Translations under genes and position numbers: made by a program | IMG/VR virus record: IMGVR_UViG_2617270976_000003 | Span: 1 to 13,188 of that record | DNA length: 13,188 nt | From: a virus | Taxonomy: Duplodnaviria > Heunggongvirae > Uroviricota > Caudoviricetes | Strand: one strand, 5' to 3' | Shown here: piece after piece, positions 1 to 10,221 of the stretch | Position numbering within the stretch: position 1 is the first letter of the stretch | Layout: the number at the start of each line of letters is the position of its first letter | Notes under the pieces: generated by a model | What the model saw: the letters and a program-made list of their open reading frames with translations, nothing else | What the model was told of the DNA's origin: nothing | Database searches by the model: none

Positions 1-1
1 C

Positions 2-118
2 CAGAAAATCATTGATATGGCCATGAATGGCGTTGGATGCCGGGCAACAGCCCGCATTATGGGCGTTGGCCTCAACACGATTTTACGTCACTTAAAAAAC
101 TCAGGCCGCAGTCGGTAA
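2..118 (+). CDS. insA: IS1 InsA, C-terminal part only (5' end off-window)
   Basis: Frame from position 2 translates to [38 protein letters not shown], stop taa at 116-118; matches the InsA C-terminus as recalled. Confidence 0.85.
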
Positions 119-540
119 CCTCGCGCATACAGCCGGGCAGTGACGTCATCGTCTGCGCGGAAATGGACGAACAGTGGGGCTATGTCGGGGCTAAATCGCG
201 CCAGCGCTGGCTGTTTTACGCGTATGACAGTCTCCGGAAGACGGTTGTTGCGCACGTATTCGGTGAACGCACTATGGCGACGCTGGGGCGTCTTATGAGC
301 CTGCTGTCACCCTTTGACGTGGTGATATGGATGACGGATGGCTGGCCGCTGTATGAATCCCGCCTGAAGGGAAAGCTGCACGTAATCAGCAAGCGATATA
401 CGCAGCGAATTGAGCGGCATAACCTGAATCTGAGGCAGCACCTGGCACGGCTGGGACGGAAGTCGCTGTCGTTCTCAAAATCGGTGGAGCTGCATGACAA
501 AGTCATCGGGCATTATCTGAACATAAAACACTATCAATAA
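37..540 (+). CDS. insB: IS1 InsB (transposase catalytic part; expressed in vivo as the InsAB' frameshift fusion)
   Basis: 167-aa [28 protein letters not shown]...HYLNIKHYQ, which I recognise as the IS1 InsB sequence; it sits in the -1 frame relative to insA. Confidence 0.9.
94..100 (+). other. IS1 programmed -1 ribosomal frameshift slippery heptamer (A6C) producing the InsAB' transposase
   Basis: Sequence aaaaaac at 94-100 inside cttaaaaaactcagg, near the insA 3' end and overlapping the insB frame; this is the established IS1 recoding site. Confidence 0.8.
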
Positions 541-560
541 GTTGGAGTCATTACCTGTTA

Positions 561-1247
561 GTGGATGACTGTCCACGATGTGGATCACAAAAAATAGCGT
601 TTGATGTTAATGGGCTGAATTGCACTAGGGTTTACAATGCATTGGGCGGGGGTAAAACATACGAGTACGAGGTCTATTGTGTTTGCCGAGAGTGTCATAA
701 AACGACAATGTTTCTTTGCAGACCTTTAACGAAAAATAAAACTTTAGATGGCTATAATTGGGAAAGTGGAATATTCGGCTTAAAGGAAGTTGCAGAGGTT
801 GTTAGGCCTATATCACCGGCAGACTTAGCAGTAGAGGAGCCACCAGAGTTCTTACCTGAGCATATCAATAGTGCATATGAGGAAGGGGCGAAATGTTTGG
901 CTATAGGTTGTTATAATGCAGCAGCAACCATGTTTAGGCTTTGCCTTGATTATGCCACAAAAGGACTTCTTCCTGATGGGGAGCAAGGGCCTGCGCAAAA
1001 AATAAGGAGAAGCCTAGGGTTAAGAATGGAGTGGTTATTTGATAATCATCTACTGCCTGAAGCTTTAAGGGAACTAGCTGAATGCGTTAAAGATGACGGA
1101 AATGATGGAGCGCATGAAGGTATTTTGGATAAAGCTGCTGCTGAGGATCTTGAAGATTTTACCTATCTTTTTTTAGAACGGCTTTACACTGAACCTCAAC
1201 GCCTTATCGAAGCCAAGACAAGGCGTGAACAAAGAAGAAACAAATAA
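561..1247 (+). CDS. Cargo protein: N-terminal C4 zinc ribbon plus C-terminal domain with a GN..AH motif (DUF4145/HEPN-like?); candidate abortive-infection or defence effector
   Basis: 228-aa ORF in visibly AT-rich DNA between the IS1 end (555) and the portal gene stop (1256). Cys at residues 4, 7, 42, 45 (CPRC ... CREC) suggests a zinc ribbon. C-terminal ECVKDDGNDGAHEG (nt 1089-1115) resembles the GN..AH signature I associate with DUF4145-type domains. The start is uncertain: GTG at 561 is the first start after the IS1 end and the frame stays open upstream into IS1, so the native 5' end may have been removed by the insertion. Confidence 0.75.
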   Translation: MDDCPRCGSQKIAFDVNGLNCTRVYNALGGGKTYEYEVYCVCRECHKTTMFLCRPLTKNKTLDGYNWESGIFGLKEVAEVVRPISPADLAVEEPPEFLPEHINSAYEEGAKCLAIGCYNAAATMFRLCLDYATKGLLPDGEQGPAQKIRRSLGLRMEWLFDNHLLPEALRELAECVKDDGNDGAHEGILDKAAAEDLEDFTYLFLERLYTEPQRLIEAKTRREQRRNK

Positions 1248-1255
1248 GTTCGGAA

Positions 1256-2290
1256 TTATTCTTCTGAAAGAATATAGGGCGTAAATTTAATCACTTCTTC
1301 GCCCAGCCAGTCGTTCAGCTCTTGTAGCCTTTTTTGCAAGGGCGTTAATTCATTACGTACAAATACGCGACTGGCCTTCTCCACATCCCCAAACCCTCCA
1401 ACATTATTAGGCATAATCCCCATCATTTGCGGCGGCACGCGGTGCGCAGCCATCATGTCGTCGCGGCTGACATTTTTGATATTCAAAAACTCATCCTTCG
1501 CCGCGACTTCTGACAATGGGATGATCTGAAGCCCGTCTTTTTTGCCGTTAGGCGAGTACATAAACAGGTTGCGGAAGTTGCCTGGACCTTTGGCGCTTTT
1601 CATCGCATTGCGGAGGTTGTTCACATCCTCCTGGTTTTGCGCGGCATCGGTCATGTACATGATAAAGCCCGCATGACTGCCGTTAATGTAATACTTGCGA
1701 CGGAACAGCGTGGCGGACTCGTTGAGCAGGGCTGACGGAATGGCAGAAAGATAACCGGGCAGGCCGTAGATCTCCTGATTAATATCCGGTTCCATCAGAT
1801 GAAAAATGCTGCCTTTCGTGAACTGATACGGCTGGGTTGTCATACCGTATTGCACAAACCAGTAGGTATCCAGGTCTAACCCGCGTCGGGTGTATTTTGC
1901 CAGTGCAGGCTCAAGGGCGATAACTTCACCGAAGCGGTTCGTGCGTTTCTCCAGGTAGGCGTTACCAAAAACCAGATAGTCCTGCACAAAACGCGAAAAA
2001 GCCTGCTGGCTGAGCAGCGGGTGAGGGATGTAGGTGCTGGTCAGAATGTTGCACTTTACTGCAATCGGGGAACTATGATGCACGGCAGCGCGGAAGGTGC
2101 GCGCCAGTCCGTCAAAGCTGACGGGCGGCTCATACCAGCGGTCCATCTGTACGCATTCCACATAATCCAGCAGTTCTCGGCGGTCCAGAACAGGAACGGG
2201 ATCGCCGAAGCTGAATGCTTCGGCTGTAGTTTGACTTTTAAGCTGGATCTGTTTCGTCGCCGCAGCGCGGTTCTTCTTACTCTTTCCCAT
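1256..2290 (-). CDS. Q: Portal (capsid portal vertex) protein, P2 gpQ-like
   Basis: 344 aa from the ATG at 2290-2288, the same length as P2 gpQ; immediately downstream of the large terminase with a TGATG stop/start overlap, as in P2. The ORF track extends it by one TTG codon to 2293. Confidence 0.9.
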   Translation of the reverse strand: MGKSKKNRAAATKQIQLKSQTTAEAFSFGDPVPVLDRRELLDYVECVQMDRWYEPPVSFDGLARTFRAAVHHSSPIAVKCNILTSTYIPHPLLSQQAFSRFVQDYLVFGNAYLEKRTNRFGEVIALEPALAKYTRRGLDLDTYWFVQYGMTTQPYQFTKGSIFHLMEPDINQEIYGLPGYLSAIPSALLNESATLFRRKYYINGSHAGFIMYMTDAAQNQEDVNNLRNAMKSAKGPGNFRNLFMYSPNGKKDGLQIIPLSEVAAKDEFLNIKNVSRDDMMAAHRVPPQMMGIMPNNVGGFGDVEKASRVFVRNELTPLQKRLQELNDWLGEEVIKFTPYILSEE

Positions 2291-4056
2291 CAAAAAATCT
2301 CCACAATATTGCTGGTATTGGCGGATTCGCCCTGCAGCGGTTCGTTAAACAGTGCGTGCATCGTTGCCCAGGCCAGATCGGCGTGGCTGGCTTCTTCGCT
2401 GCGGCTGGCTTCATAGGTCGGGCGGTTGCCACTGGCGGTGGTGGCGCGACGGATTGCCATAAAGGACTGCGCTATGTCGGTGTGTCCGGCGTCAAACTCC
2501 AGACGGCGGTGGCTGATAATGTCGTAGGCCTTGAGTACCAGGGCGTTTTTAACGTTGGGGTTGTAGACAAACTCCCGGACGGCAGGAAAAAACGCTTTCA
2601 CGTTCTCGTAAACCCCGTGACCAACGCCGGTTGAGTCGATACCGATATAGGTCACGTTGTACTGTTCGGTCAGTTTTTTGATGGCGTCAGCCTGGGCGCG
2701 GAAGTCCATTCCGCGCCACTGGTGACGCTCAAGAATGCGGAACTTACCGCCCGGCACGGCTGGCGGCGCCACCACCACGCATCCGGCGCTGTCGCCGTTC
2801 TGCGTACCTTTCGCCGGGTCATATCCGATCCACACTTCGCGCCAGCCAAACGGGCGCAGGGCCAGTGCATGAAAGTCGGTCCAGACTTCCCAACTGTCCA
2901 CCATGCACGCCTGCAGCTCGCTGAGCGGGAACACGGACGCGAGATCGTCCACGAACTCGCACATCAGCAGGTTCTGGTATTCGTCCGGGCTGTACTCCAT
3001 GCGCAACTGGTCAAGGTCGAACAGGTTACAGCCGCCGCGCACCGCATCTTCCACGGTGACTATCTGGCGGTACTGCCCGTCTGCGCACAGCAGGCCGGGG
3101 GCCAGATTGCTGTGGGACAGGTCGATGTCCACCTTATCGGCTTTGTTGCGCCCTCGGTTGAACAGCGCACCGGACCAGAACGGATAAGCACTGTGTGTCA
3201 GGCTGGATGGCGTGGAAAAATAGGTTTGTCGCCATTTTTTGTGAATAGCCATACCGGAAGCCACTTTGCGCAGCTCCTGGAATTTCGGTATCCAGAAATA
3301 TTCATCCAGATACAGGTTGCCGTGGTAACTCTGGGCCGTGCGGGCATTGGTGCCGAGGAAGTAAAGCGTGGCCCCGTTAGGAAGCACCATCGGATCGCCT
3401 TTCAGCTCCACCTCGACTTCTTTGGCGAAGTCGATGATGTACTGCTTAAAGACGTGGGCCTGTGCCTTACTGGCGGAAAGGAAAATCTGGTTACGTCCGG
3501 TCAGCAGGGCGTCAATCAGGGCTTCACGGGCAAAGTAAAAGGTCGCGCCGATCTGGCGAGACTTCAGCAGGTTGCGGATGCGATTGGTTTTTCCGGCTTC
3601 CCACCAGTGGCGCTGGTAGTTGAACATGGAGGAATGGAAGATTTCTTCCAGCTTCTCAATCTGTTCATCGGTGAAAACATTCTTTTCCGGCTGACGGCGC
3701 GGCCCTTTGTTGCGGTTGGCGACGTTAGGGTTTAAGTCGGCTTCGTTGCCGCCATTGTTAAACTTGCCGATCCGCGCGTGGCGCTCCGACTGGCGCGCCA
3801 GCAGGTCAATTTCTTTGAAATCTTTCCCTTCTTTGTGCTCCTTCATAATGAGCTGGCAGTAGCGGGCGGCGGTGGTGAGCTGCATCTGATCCAGCGGCCC
3901 ATAGTCACCCCACTTGTCGCGTTTTTTCCAGCTGTGAACGGTTGCAACTTTCTCGCCCAGCATTTCAGCAATGCGGGCTACGCGGTATCCCTGAAAGTAC
4001 AGCAGCATGGCCTGCCGACGGGGATCGAGATCTGCGGGTGTCAGTGTGGTGTTCAT
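2290..4056 (-). CDS. P: Terminase large (ATPase) subunit, P2 gpP-like
   Basis: 588-aa ORF (P2 gpP is ~590 aa), divergent from the scaffold/capsid operon as in P2. The long plus-strand ORF inside it is antisense noise. Confidence 0.9.
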   Translation of the reverse strand: MNTTLTPADLDPRRQAMLLYFQGYRVARIAEMLGEKVATVHSWKKRDKWGDYGPLDQMQLTTAARYCQLIMKEHKEGKDFKEIDLLARQSERHARIGKFNNGGNEADLNPNVANRNKGPRRQPEKNVFTDEQIEKLEEIFHSSMFNYQRHWWEAGKTNRIRNLLKSRQIGATFYFAREALIDALLTGRNQIFLSASKAQAHVFKQYIIDFAKEVEVELKGDPMVLPNGATLYFLGTNARTAQSYHGNLYLDEYFWIPKFQELRKVASGMAIHKKWRQTYFSTPSSLTHSAYPFWSGALFNRGRNKADKVDIDLSHSNLAPGLLCADGQYRQIVTVEDAVRGGCNLFDLDQLRMEYSPDEYQNLLMCEFVDDLASVFPLSELQACMVDSWEVWTDFHALALRPFGWREVWIGYDPAKGTQNGDSAGCVVVAPPAVPGGKFRILERHQWRGMDFRAQADAIKKLTEQYNVTYIGIDSTGVGHGVYENVKAFFPAVREFVYNPNVKNALVLKAYDIISHRRLEFDAGHTDIAQSFMAIRRATTASGNRPTYEASRSEEASHADLAWATMHALFNEPLQGESANTSNIVEIF

Positions 4057-5048: not shown

Positions 5049-6107
5049 ATGAAGAAGAATACCCGTTTTGCTTTTAACGCTTACCTGCAGCAACTGGCGC
5101 GTCTGAACGGTGTGGCAGTTGAGGAACTGTCCAGCAAGTTCACCGTAGAGCCGTCTGTGCAGCAGACGCTGGAAGACCAGATCCAGCAGTCCGCCGCTTT
5201 CCTGACGCTGATTAACGTCACGCCAGTGACTGAGCAGTCCGGTCAGCTGCTTGGATTGGGTGTTGGCAGCACCATTGCCGGAACCACTGACACCACCGCG
5301 AAAGAGCGTGAACCTGTCGATCCGACGCTGATGAGCGATGTGGAATACAAATGCGAACAGACCAACTTTGACACGGTGCTGACCTACGCGAAGCTGGACC
5401 TGTGGGCGAAGTTTCAGGATTTCCAGGTGCGTATCCGTGACGCCATCGTGAAACGCCAGGCACTGGACCGCATCATGATCGGCTTTAACGGCGTGAAGCG
5501 TGCGAAAACCTCCAACCGTAGCGAAAACCCGCTGCTGCAGGATGTGAACAAAGGCTGGCTGCAGAAAATCCGTGAGGATGCACCGGATCACGTCATGGGC
5601 AGCACCACCACGGGCGGTGAAACCACACCGGGTGCGGTGAAAGTCGGGAAAGGTGGCGAATATGCCAACCTGGACGCCGTGGTGATGGATGCGGTCAATG
5701 AGCTTATCGACGTGGTCTACCAGGACGATGACGATCTGGTGGTGATTTGCGGTCGTGAGCTGCTGTCTGACAAGTATTTCCCGCTGGTCAACAAAGAGCA
5801 GGAAAACAGTGAAAAACTGGCTGCCGATATGATCATCAGTCAGAAACGCATGGGTGGCCTGCAGGCCGTGCGTGCGCCGTTCTTCCCGCCGAATGCGCTG
5901 CTGATCACCCGTCTGGATAACCTGTCCATTTACTGGCAGGAAGACACCCGCCGCCGTTCGGTTATCGACAACCCGAAACGTGACCGGATTGAAAATTTTG
6001 AATCCGTTAACGAAGCCTATGTGGTTGAGGACTACCGCTGCGCCGCACTGGTGGAAAACATCCAGATTGGCGACTTCAGCGCCGCCGCAGCAGAAACCGG
6101 AGCGTAA
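5049..6107 (+). CDS. N: Major capsid protein, P2 gpN-like
   Basis: 352-aa ORF with strong recalled similarity to P2 gpN throughout (e.g. RFAFNAYL, FTVEPSVQQTL, LDLWAKFQDFQVRIRDAIVKRQALD, GFNGVKRA, LAADMIISQKR); GGAG RBS. Confidence 0.95.
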   Translation: MKKNTRFAFNAYLQQLARLNGVAVEELSSKFTVEPSVQQTLEDQIQQSAAFLTLINVTPVTEQSGQLLGLGVGSTIAGTTDTTAKEREPVDPTLMSDVEYKCEQTNFDTVLTYAKLDLWAKFQDFQVRIRDAIVKRQALDRIMIGFNGVKRAKTSNRSENPLLQDVNKGWLQKIREDAPDHVMGSTTTGGETTPGAVKVGKGGEYANLDAVVMDAVNELIDVVYQDDDDLVVICGRELLSDKYFPLVNKEQENSEKLAADMIISQKRMGGLQAVRAPFFPPNALLITRLDNLSIYWQEDTRRRSVIDNPKRDRIENFESVNEAYVVEDYRCAALVENIQIGDFSAAAAETGA

Positions 6108-9641: not shown

Positions 9642-10172
9642 TTACGCTCTTAATAAACTTAAATAACTTTTTATGCTTTGGCAAAAAGGGAAAAGGTCTA
9701 TTTTAATTTTCCAGTTTTTTTTGTTTTGAACCCCAGAAGCAATAATAGAACCGTCCCAATATTTTATTCCATTTTTGCCGGTCTTTTTTGTTAACTCAAA
9801 ACTTAATGCGTGAATAATTTTATTGCAGCATTCGCGTATAGAATCTTTAACATGACCATCTATAACAAAAAGTATATTTTCATGTTCTTCAAATGCTTCT
9901 TTCTCAGGTGAGTAATCTGGGTTCCACTCATGTTCACTAGTGTCTTGGAGAATTCGTAGTTTTGTACAAAGGCTAATAAGATTGTTGCTAATGGTATATT
10001 CCAACCATCCGTTGTACGATAACTCCTCCATTTCAAATTCAGTTACTATAGAACCATCATATACTTTCTGTGTGGAATATATACGCTGTAAATAAAATTC
10101 AGATGAACAGCATAATTGCTCAATTATTCTTGCGTGTTCTTCTATAGCGTAATAATCAATTGGATGGCTCAT
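9642..10172 (-). CDS. Hypothetical protein of unknown function in a very AT-rich island; candidate defence or accessory cargo
   Basis: 176 aa from the ATG at 10172-10170 (MSHPIDYY...), with an AAAGG RBS about 7 nt upstream. The ORF-track start at 10211 has no RBS and overlaps the dyad element at 10204-10221. Stop is 5 bp from the S stop (convergent). No homologue recognised; contains RECCNKIIH (R113, N117, H121; nt 9810-9836). Confidence 0.75.
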   Translation of the reverse strand: MSHPIDYYAIEEHARIIEQLCCSSEFYLQRIYSTQKVYDGSIVTEFEMEELSYNGWLEYTISNNLISLCTKLRILQDTSEHEWNPDYSPEKEAFEEHENILFVIDGHVKDSIRECCNKIIHALSFELTKKTGKNGIKYWDGSIIASGVQNKKNWKIKIDLFPFCQSIKSYLSLLRA

Positions 10173-10203
10173 TCTTTTACCTTTCTTTGATTGGAATTGT
10201 ATT

Positions 10204-10221
10204 TGTGTCATTTACCACACA
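10204..10221. promoter_or_regulatory. Candidate late-promoter activator site (TGTGT-N8-ACACA inverted repeat, fits TGT-N12-ACA) between the cargo gene and V
   Basis: tgtgtcatttaccacaca is a perfect 5-bp inverted repeat and fits the P2-family late-promoter dyad. Caveat: its centre is only ~55 bp upstream of the V start codon, which leaves no room for a leader if the -55 rule holds, so spacing is atypical. Confidence 0.35.

Follow-up and report, generated by a model that had tools for sequence, protein, structure and literature searches.

The window analysed here, the entire draft contig JNQT01000071.1 (13,188 bp, assembly GCA_000704325.1), starts inside an IS1 element. The right-hand part of IS1 is followed by an open reading frame (ORF) encoding a protein with an N-terminal zinc ribbon and a C-terminal DUF4145/HEPN domain, further denoted ZF-HEPN, and then by a convergent P2-type portal gene Q. 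This ORF likely encodes a stand-alone anti-phage zinc-finger-HEPN protein from a sister family of the RNase RAZR, carried as cargo by P2-like prophages, and the copy in the window has likely been silenced or attenuated by IS1. The coordinates of all features are given in Table 1.

The IS1 fragment contains the InsB ORF at 37-540 (167-aa product with a Pfam DDE_Tnp_IS1 match) and a terminal inverted repeat that ends, as read directly from the sequence, with ...GGAGTCATTACC at base 555. Bases 1-555 have thousands of matches in E. coli genomes, where the element is multi-copy. A preliminary description of this DNA, made from the letters alone, had already placed the gene next to IS1. A search of all six frames between 556 and 1255 gives a single ORF of 50 aa or more, 561..1247 on the plus strand. 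It is separated by 8 nt from the portal gene, beyond which lie terminase, scaffold, capsid and tail genes. The GC content is 0.41-0.44 over 451-1350 versus 0.51-0.63 in the adjacent phage genes, in agreement with the AT-richness reported earlier. The ORF did not arise by chance, since it has more than 1000 homologues at E<=0.001, and the cysteines and the motif residues are invariant among homologues. No RNA family of Rfam was found in the window.

The cysteines of the N-terminal ribbon, C4/C7 and C42/C45, form the CxxC...CxxC pattern seen in the preliminary description, and the C-terminal GN..AH motif seen there lies within ECVKDDGNDGAHEG (residues 174-187 of the window ORF), with N181 and H185 numbered as before. 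The proposed DUF4145/HEPN domain is recognized by the Pfam profile PF13643 at residues 110-199, with 30.3 bits against a gathering cut-off of 23.1 (E=4.4e-7). The AlphaFold2 model built on an alignment of 115 homologues (pLDDT 87.7, pTM 0.70) shows a beta-rich domain at the N terminus and a helical one at the C terminus, and the latter has the alpha-helical HEPN fold that had been anticipated. A model built from the single sequence (pLDDT 36) was unusable and was dropped in favour of the alignment-based one. In PHROGs, the protein matches phrog_1305 (E=1e-51) labelled "DNA binding protein"; this label was probably derived from the zinc ribbon alone.

Conservation was considered in a close set of 115 homologues with at least 48% identity, and in a diverse set of 112 full-length representatives of 50%-identity clusters. 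In the close set, positions C4, C7, C42, C45, N119, R126, D130, G180, N181, D182, G183 and H185 are invariant, and K177 is conserved in at least 90% of sequences. In the diverse set the zinc cysteines are retained in 102-110 sequences, H185 in 109, N181 in 105, and R126 in 111, whereas position 177 is occupied by arginine in 65 and by lysine in 37. The motif [K/R]xxGNxxxH, together with R126 and D130, is nearly invariant across these representatives. Sequence variability is much higher in the zinc-finger domain than in the HEPN domain (mean column entropy 2.1-2.8 versus 1.0 bits). The HEPN domain contains four additional cysteines, C112 (894-896), C117 (909-911), C128 (942-944) and C175 (1083-1085), which are conserved in close homologues and absent from the RAZR family. 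The possibility that they form a second metal or redox site was rejected, as 10-30% of the diverse representatives have S, A, V or T at these positions. More likely, they are buried small residues.

The same combination of domains is found in RAZR. The defence system PD-T7-4 came out of a functional selection carried out in E. coli (Vassallo et al. 2022, PMC9519451) and is the same protein as RAZR, "ring-activated zinc-finger RNase", of E. coli UMB1727 (Zhang et al., Nature 2026, PMC13017515; PDB 9Y9C/9Y6U). According to the latter study, RAZR consists of an N-terminal Cys4 zinc-finger domain and a DUF4145/HEPN domain, acts by abortive infection, is non-toxic when expressed alone, and needs no partner. 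It is activated by the assembly of 24 protomers around phage rings, that is, Gp77 of SECphi27 or the portals of T7, T3 and SECphi18, and cleaves single-stranded RNA non-specifically. Mutants R146A and H154A lose defence. Within RAZR, variability is highest in the zinc-finger domain, which determines the specificity, and the role of the linker and the oligomerisation residues D179/D180/R184 are also described (PMC13017515).

A set of true RAZR-family proteins was collected starting from gene 9 of Streptococcus phage Javan263, through the alignment of its homologues (A3), to chain OA of PDB 9Y9C. The PADLOC PD-T7-4 model matches Javan263_0009 at full length with 236 bits (E=7.7e-71). The A3 profile retrieves 9Y9C chain OA, which is the 219-aa RAZR-Ec (E=4.4e-75), and the recovered sequence agrees with the numbering of PMC13017515 at R146, H154, D179, D180, R184 and V21. 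The window protein is aligned by BLASTP with Javan263_0009 colinearly over residues 4-215 (21% identity, E=2e-9), with both CxxC knuckles matched, and with RAZR-Ec over the linker and the HEPN domain (25% identity over 136 aa, E=1e-5). A comparison of the alignment of the window family (A2) with A3 by hhalign gives 97.8% probability (E=8e-13) over residues 34-218. The Cys4 ribbon, the linker and the C-terminal DUF4145 domain thus stand in one protein of ~220 aa, colinear with RAZR from C4 to residue 215, and on these alignments the homology to RAZR and the shared architecture appear nearly certain.

In the putative active site, K177, N181 and H185 of the window protein are aligned with R146, N150 and H154 of RAZR. 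His185 and Asn181 are thus retained, whereas the basic residue is Lys177, a conservative replacement of R146, and the spacing of seven residues is the same as between R146 and H154. Since lysine and arginine replace each other at position 177 while the rest of the motif is fixed, Lys177 is probably a working equivalent of the RAZR arginine and not a sign of decay; the idea that it marks an inactive HEPN domain was rejected for the same reason. Residues D179/D180/R184 of RAZR are aligned with E206/R207/E211 (window positions 1176-1193), whose conservation across the wider family is only moderate. The alignment retains one acidic residue, while the D180-R184 pair appears to be charge-swapped (R207/E211), which would be compatible with a preserved interface.

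Table 1. Features at the IS1-proximal end of the window, with residues numbered from the GTG codon at 561
Feature	Position	Strand	Details
Right-hand 555 bp of IS1	1..555	+	InsB ORF and terminal inverted repeat; reads toward the ZF-HEPN gene
Remnant of native codons 3-4 (..tG TTA)	556..560	+	IS1/target junction between 555 and 556
ZF-HEPN (RAZR-like) ORF, 228 aa	561..1247	+	GTG start = native Val5; stop at 1245-1247
Beta-rich zinc-finger domain, residues ~1-85	561..815	+	AlphaFold2 strands 14-26, 32-42, 48-55, 78-84
Cys4 zinc-ribbon core	570..695	+	C4 (570-572), C7 (579-581), C42 (684-686), C45 (693-695)
Inter-domain linker, residues 86-98, ..PADLAVEEPPEFL..	816..854	+	Conserved in the family, alignable with the RAZR linker
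DUF4145/HEPN domain, residues 99-190	855..1130	+	Pfam match at residues 110-199
Putative catalytic motif K177-D-D-G-N181-D-G-A-H185	1089..1115	+	Alignments to RAZR-Ec (9Y9C chain) and Javan263_0009
Long C-terminal helix with basic tail, residues 191-228	1131..1244	+	AlphaFold2 model, RAZR alignments
P2-type portal gene Q, convergent, hotspot boundary	1256..2293	-	Pfam Phage_portal E=3.6e-18; RefSeq annotation in LF82

From position 556 onward the window DNA is 100% identical to a locus that is found in E. coli LF82, in no fewer than 26 further complete genomes of E. coli, and in phage Cartapus (Peduoviridae). The latter is the prophage of LF82 and belongs to Cartapus/Fels-2-like, P2-like phages. 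The intact allele, CARTA_1/LF82_788/LF82_RS13705, encodes a protein of 232 aa annotated in RefSeq as "DUF4145 domain-containing protein" (WP_000245245.1). In LF82 the native coding sequence starts with ATG GTT ATG TTA GTG GAT GAC TGT at position 5994 of the locus sequence (L001), and the ATG codon lies seven or eight nt past the Shine-Dalgarno sequence GGGAGGAG. The identity begins exactly at window position 556, corresponding to L001 6001 and to nucleotide 8 of the coding sequence. Hence the insertion point of IS1 is within codon 3, past nucleotide 7, and the window ORF lacks the four N-terminal codons (MVML). The 228-aa protein of the preliminary description is therefore a real ORF but not the full-length product, and the comparison with intact relatives proposed there has yielded the native start as well as the neighbours described below. 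The native ATG, the Shine-Dalgarno sequence and the ~290-bp upstream region, which in Cartapus contains the cos site, are all displaced by IS1. Past the junction the gene has no further mutations relative to the intact allele, and the insertion is therefore recent. A simple insertion would be accompanied by a 9-bp direct repeat, the target-site duplication, expected to start with TGTTAGTGG; since the contig starts inside IS1 and both the left flank and the duplication are outside the window, simple insertion cannot be distinguished from an IS1-mediated deletion or rearrangement. The IS1/gene junction occurs in none of the 5426 complete E. coli genomes and has no exact matches in the GTDB representative genomes.

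Deprived of its ATG, Shine-Dalgarno sequence and promoter, the window copy is probably silenced or weakened. IS1 separates the remaining 228 codons, otherwise undamaged, from all native signals, and residual expression would require that transcripts from IS1 extend into the gene and that translation start at GTG 561 via the GGAG box. Some read-through expression is conceivable. A stronger version of it, in which transcription from IS1, the GGAG of the terminal repeat and GTG 561 together produce a 228-aa protein that still defends without MVML, is unlikely but survives best among the alternatives. Indeed, downstream of the junction the sequence equals that of intact alleles, with no zinc or catalytic residue missing; insA/insB are directed toward the gene; the first start codon in frame is GTG 561, with GGAG at 544-547 in the IS1 end; and the ORF was called by the gene caller of the public assembly. 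However, the displaced Shine-Dalgarno sequence is a strong one, the 13-nt spacing between GGAG and GTG is long, and residues L4 and V5 (native numbering) are conserved in the family. A consensus scan found no sigma-70-like promoter in window positions 1-1400, although the scan for promoters and terminators was uninformative for the window and the intact allele alike. The InsB stop codon at 538-540 is in a different frame from the ZF-HEPN ORF. The own transcription of IS1 is weak and autorepressed. Judging from the arrangement of these signals, expression of the clipped copy is probably impaired, with the copy being either silenced or strongly attenuated.

A less likely alternative concerns the family and not the copy. 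The divergent zinc finger may serve to recognize another class of phage or satellite assemblies, and the K-type site and the swapped interface may give a different geometry of activation. The ~30-fold induction in macrophages would then point to defence coupled to signals of the host environment, and the fixed position next to the phage's own portal gene might stem from the need to co-evolve with the resident portal ring without being activated by it. That the family is such an independent immune sensor, more than a variant of RAZR, is unlikely.

Expression of the intact allele in LF82 was taken from published RNA-seq data (S1 table of PMC9928086), given as log2(fpkm+5). The values for CARTA_1/LF82_788 are 4.65-4.71 in stationary LB, 7.0-7.6 under conditions B1/B6, and 9.2-9.6 in THP1 macrophages, whereas those for the adjacent portal, terminase and capsid genes are 2.3-3.1 (PMC9928086). 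The rise in macrophages relative to stationary LB is ~30-fold. Thus CARTA_1 is expressed while its late-gene neighbours are low and has its own expression active in the lysogen, as required for a prophage defence gene. In the window copy IS1 has probably cut off this lysogen-active expression.

These data also bear on the possibility that the gene is a moron without an immune role, that is, a nucleic-acid-binding regulator or an RNase induced by stress or by the host in macrophages, perhaps with an altered K-type site. The phrog_1305 label, the increase in macrophages, and the lysine in place of the RAZR arginine are consistent with it. However, the label is probably explained by the zinc ribbon, while the motif, R126 and D130 are nearly invariant with K and R interchangeable, as would be the case for a basic residue that works in catalysis. 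The defence hotspot, the patchy distribution on mobile elements and the hypervariable sensor domain are typical of immune genes, and a non-immune role is improbable.

In LF82, the cargo on the gpA side (L001 4278-5704) consists of a 62-aa ORF, a DinI-family gene, an 86-aa ORF and a 203-aa ORF, which are CARTA_44 to CARTA_47. They are strongly up in macrophages (log2 up to 10-11), and CARTA_47 (203 aa) tracks the ZF-HEPN gene across the conditions. CARTA_47 has no significant Pfam or PADLOC match.

The region between gpA and gpQ is a hotspot of P2-like phages that carries defence cargo (Rousset et al. 2022; Vassallo et al. 2022, PMC9519451). The ZF-HEPN gene lies between genes A and Q in LF82/Cartapus and five other P2-like prophages; the window itself shows only the portal side. 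In all six prophages (two E. coli lineages, Pantoea, Dickeya, Serratia and Klebsiella; 54-100% identity) the gene stands beside the portal gene and is convergent with it. It is present in 43 of the 5426 complete E. coli genomes, while portal homologues are present in 1245. This agrees with the earlier suggestion that it is portal-proximal hotspot cargo and not a core phage gene. The whole family, with 888 cluster representatives in an exhaustive search, is found in Enterobacterales, other Gammaproteobacteria, Nitrospira and other groups.

The genes across cos vary by lineage: DinI with hypothetical genes; YafO/Arc/ORF6N; HicAB; HipA_C/HIRAN/exonuclease; or two small ORFs. Outside P2-like prophages, the Oceanimonas homologue has genes of an integrase and of an IS91-type transposase as neighbours and an AbiTii-domain gene ~4 kb away, and the Nitrospira homologue is alone in the chromosome. 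No neighbour is conserved across the nine contexts. The ZF-HEPN family thus consists of stand-alone accessory genes, and the earlier idea that a partner lay upstream and was lost to IS1 is not supported. It is hardly plausible that the protein is the toxin of a two-gene toxin-antitoxin or other two-component system whose upstream partner was separated or deleted by IS1: although many HEPN toxins have MNT antitoxins (PMC3710099) and CARTA_47 has a similar expression profile in LF82, in intact relatives ~290 bp with the cos site precede the gene, none of the lineages compared share the genes on the far side of cos, homologues stand alone (Nitrospira) or by an integrase (Oceanimonas), CARTA_47 has no match of the kind mentioned above, and RAZR is non-toxic alone and partner-free (PMC13017515).

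More distant relatives were found in other phages. Stx-type lambdoid phages (Escherichia phage PhiR5_2, positions 2492-3166 of locus L010; Shigella phages POCJ13 and 75/02 Stx) contain a ZF-DUF4145 homologue with ~25% identity, located between the replication genes and ninB and adjoining a HigBA pair. Its RefSeq name, 'DNA binding protein', is probably misleading, and the gene is probably another ZF-HEPN defence candidate. In Burkholderia phage phiBt-TXDOH, tblastn aligns the ZF-HEPN protein with the plus strand at positions 2501-3091 of locus L011 (32% identity, E=2e-12). The only coding sequence in the record across that stretch is a 301-aa hypothetical one on the opposite strand (2393-3298, minus), and it may be a wrong-strand gene call.

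The preferred reading, a stand-alone anti-phage protein of a RAZR sister family, is supported directly by its domain architecture, by the modelled HEPN fold, by homology to RAZR with conserved catalytic and zinc residues, by the stand-alone accessory status, and by the transcription of the intact allele in the lysogen. The earlier proposal of a single-protein effector combining a zinc ribbon and a HEPN domain agrees with the homology to RAZR and the lack of a conserved partner, so far as sequences can tell.

By analogy, a mechanism similar to that of RAZR seems rather likely. The protein would be made constitutively in the lysogen and, like RAZR, would be harmless alone. The variable N-terminal Cys4 zinc-ribbon domain would bind a multimeric, probably ring-shaped, protein of the infecting phage. 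The resulting assembly would position HEPN dimers such that the [K/R]-x3-N-x3-H site (K177/N181/H185) cleaves single-stranded RNA, which would halt translation and abort the infection. Here we infer the defence function, the RNase activity and the type of trigger from RAZR, and the degree of inactivation of the window copy from its missing signals.

Several observations weigh against this reading. The catalytic arginine of RAZR is a lysine in the window protein, while R146A abolishes the defence by RAZR. The PADLOC PD-T7-4 model (PDLC04109) matches the window protein with only 26.2 bits (E=1.2e-6, 60% of the model covered), far below the 236 bits of a true member. Neither phmmer with the protein nor hmmsearch with the family profile had matches among PDB sequences, so that RAZR was not retrieved, and Foldseek of the model against PDB found no significant match. 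The ZF-HEPN family is not among the validated defence systems checked, and the trigger is not predictable from the sequence. Finally, the absence of the four N-terminal residues and of the native signals would probably abolish the function, but read-through from IS1 could leave some expression. The failure of the family's own profile to find RAZR in the PDB sequence set means that the two families are separate. With a weak PADLOC match and family-level homology detectable only by comparison of profiles, the ZF-HEPN proteins form a sister family and are not RAZR sensu stricto.

What is added to the published picture is modest. The fusion of the zinc ribbon with DUF4145 (2013), the P2 hotspot and PD-T7-4 (2022), the mechanism of RAZR (2026) and the RefSeq annotation were already known. 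A specialist would find no surprise in the architecture, the hotspot or the class of mechanism, all of which have been published. The new elements are a RAZR sister family at 21-25% identity, barely seen by PADLOC, with a K-type position and a fixed site between cos and the portal gene, and an allele decapitated by IS1. No mention of WP_000245245 was found in the papers searched. If the intact allele defends, the principle of RAZR, an RNase activated by assembly around a ring of phage protein, would extend to a second, widespread family, and comparison with RAZR could demonstrate how variation of the zinc-finger domain retargets such sensors. A defence gene not annotated as such, and barely detected by PADLOC-type models, would then be added to the catalogue of the P2 hotspot. 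The IS1 allele is probably a natural loss-of-expression variant and offers a ready control for the otherwise identical LF82 allele. It is also a small example of how insertion sequences erode immunity carried by prophages.

The window contains a second AT-rich island (GC 0.28-0.36) between the tail gene S and the baseplate gene V. It contains a 189-aa ORF on the opposite strand (9642-10211, minus; 176 aa in the public assembly) that matches phrog_18838 (E=6e-136), a family with no function assigned, while Pfam, NCBIfam and PADLOC give no match. Among phage records it is found only in Cartapus (CARTA_14). In LF82, expression of CARTA_14 reaches log2 5-6 under conditions B1/B6, with the floor at ~2.3. 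This ORF may be a second moron or cargo gene.

DUF4145 (PF13643) belongs to the HEPN superfamily (clan CL0291), and its fusion with a zinc ribbon was listed in 2013 (Anantharaman et al., PMC3710099). The window protein belongs to it both by the Pfam threshold and by the fold of the model. However, the canonical HEPN motif is R-x4-6-H, whereas the window protein and RAZR have [K/R]-x7-H, and the GNDGAH core is highly conserved in the subfamily of the window protein. Many HEPN proteins act as toxins and have an MNT antitoxin as partner (PMC3710099). In HEPN-MNT pairs (HepT/MntA, PDB 5YEP, 7AE2) there is an antitoxin partner, whereas the window protein has a zinc-ribbon sensor domain instead, and neither MNT nor any other conserved neighbour was seen in any context examined. 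The same broad pair of a zinc finger and HEPN is found in DS-38 of DefensePredictor (WP_001313577.1), a validated E. coli defence protein, of which, according to its authors, only the HEPN domain aligns with PD-T7-4. Identity of the window protein with DS-38 was rejected, as the latter is a different, 366-aa protein outside the window family.

The resemblance to RAZR is closer. Both are single proteins of ~220-235 aa with a Cys4 ribbon, a conserved linker and a DUF4145/HEPN domain, both stand alone on mobile elements, and in both families the zinc-finger domain is the most variable part. The differences are K177 in place of Arg146, the charge-swapped R207/E211 versus D180/R184, the identity of only 21-25%, and an extra 25-residue stretch past the second zinc knuckle that distinguishes the window protein from RAZR-Ec. 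The niches differ as well: the window family occupies the slot between cos and the portal gene in P2-like prophages, whereas PD-T7-4 was described as 'often overlapping an integrase gene' (PMC9519451). Like old, tin and other gpA-gpQ cargo of P2, the window gene is cos-proximal, adjacent to the portal gene Q, AT-rich, and present in a fraction of P2-like prophages. Its location within the hotspot is distinctive in that it is found on the portal side of cos, where it is the first gene in the packaged linear genome. This location is constant across genera, whereas the set of cargo genes on the gpA side changes.

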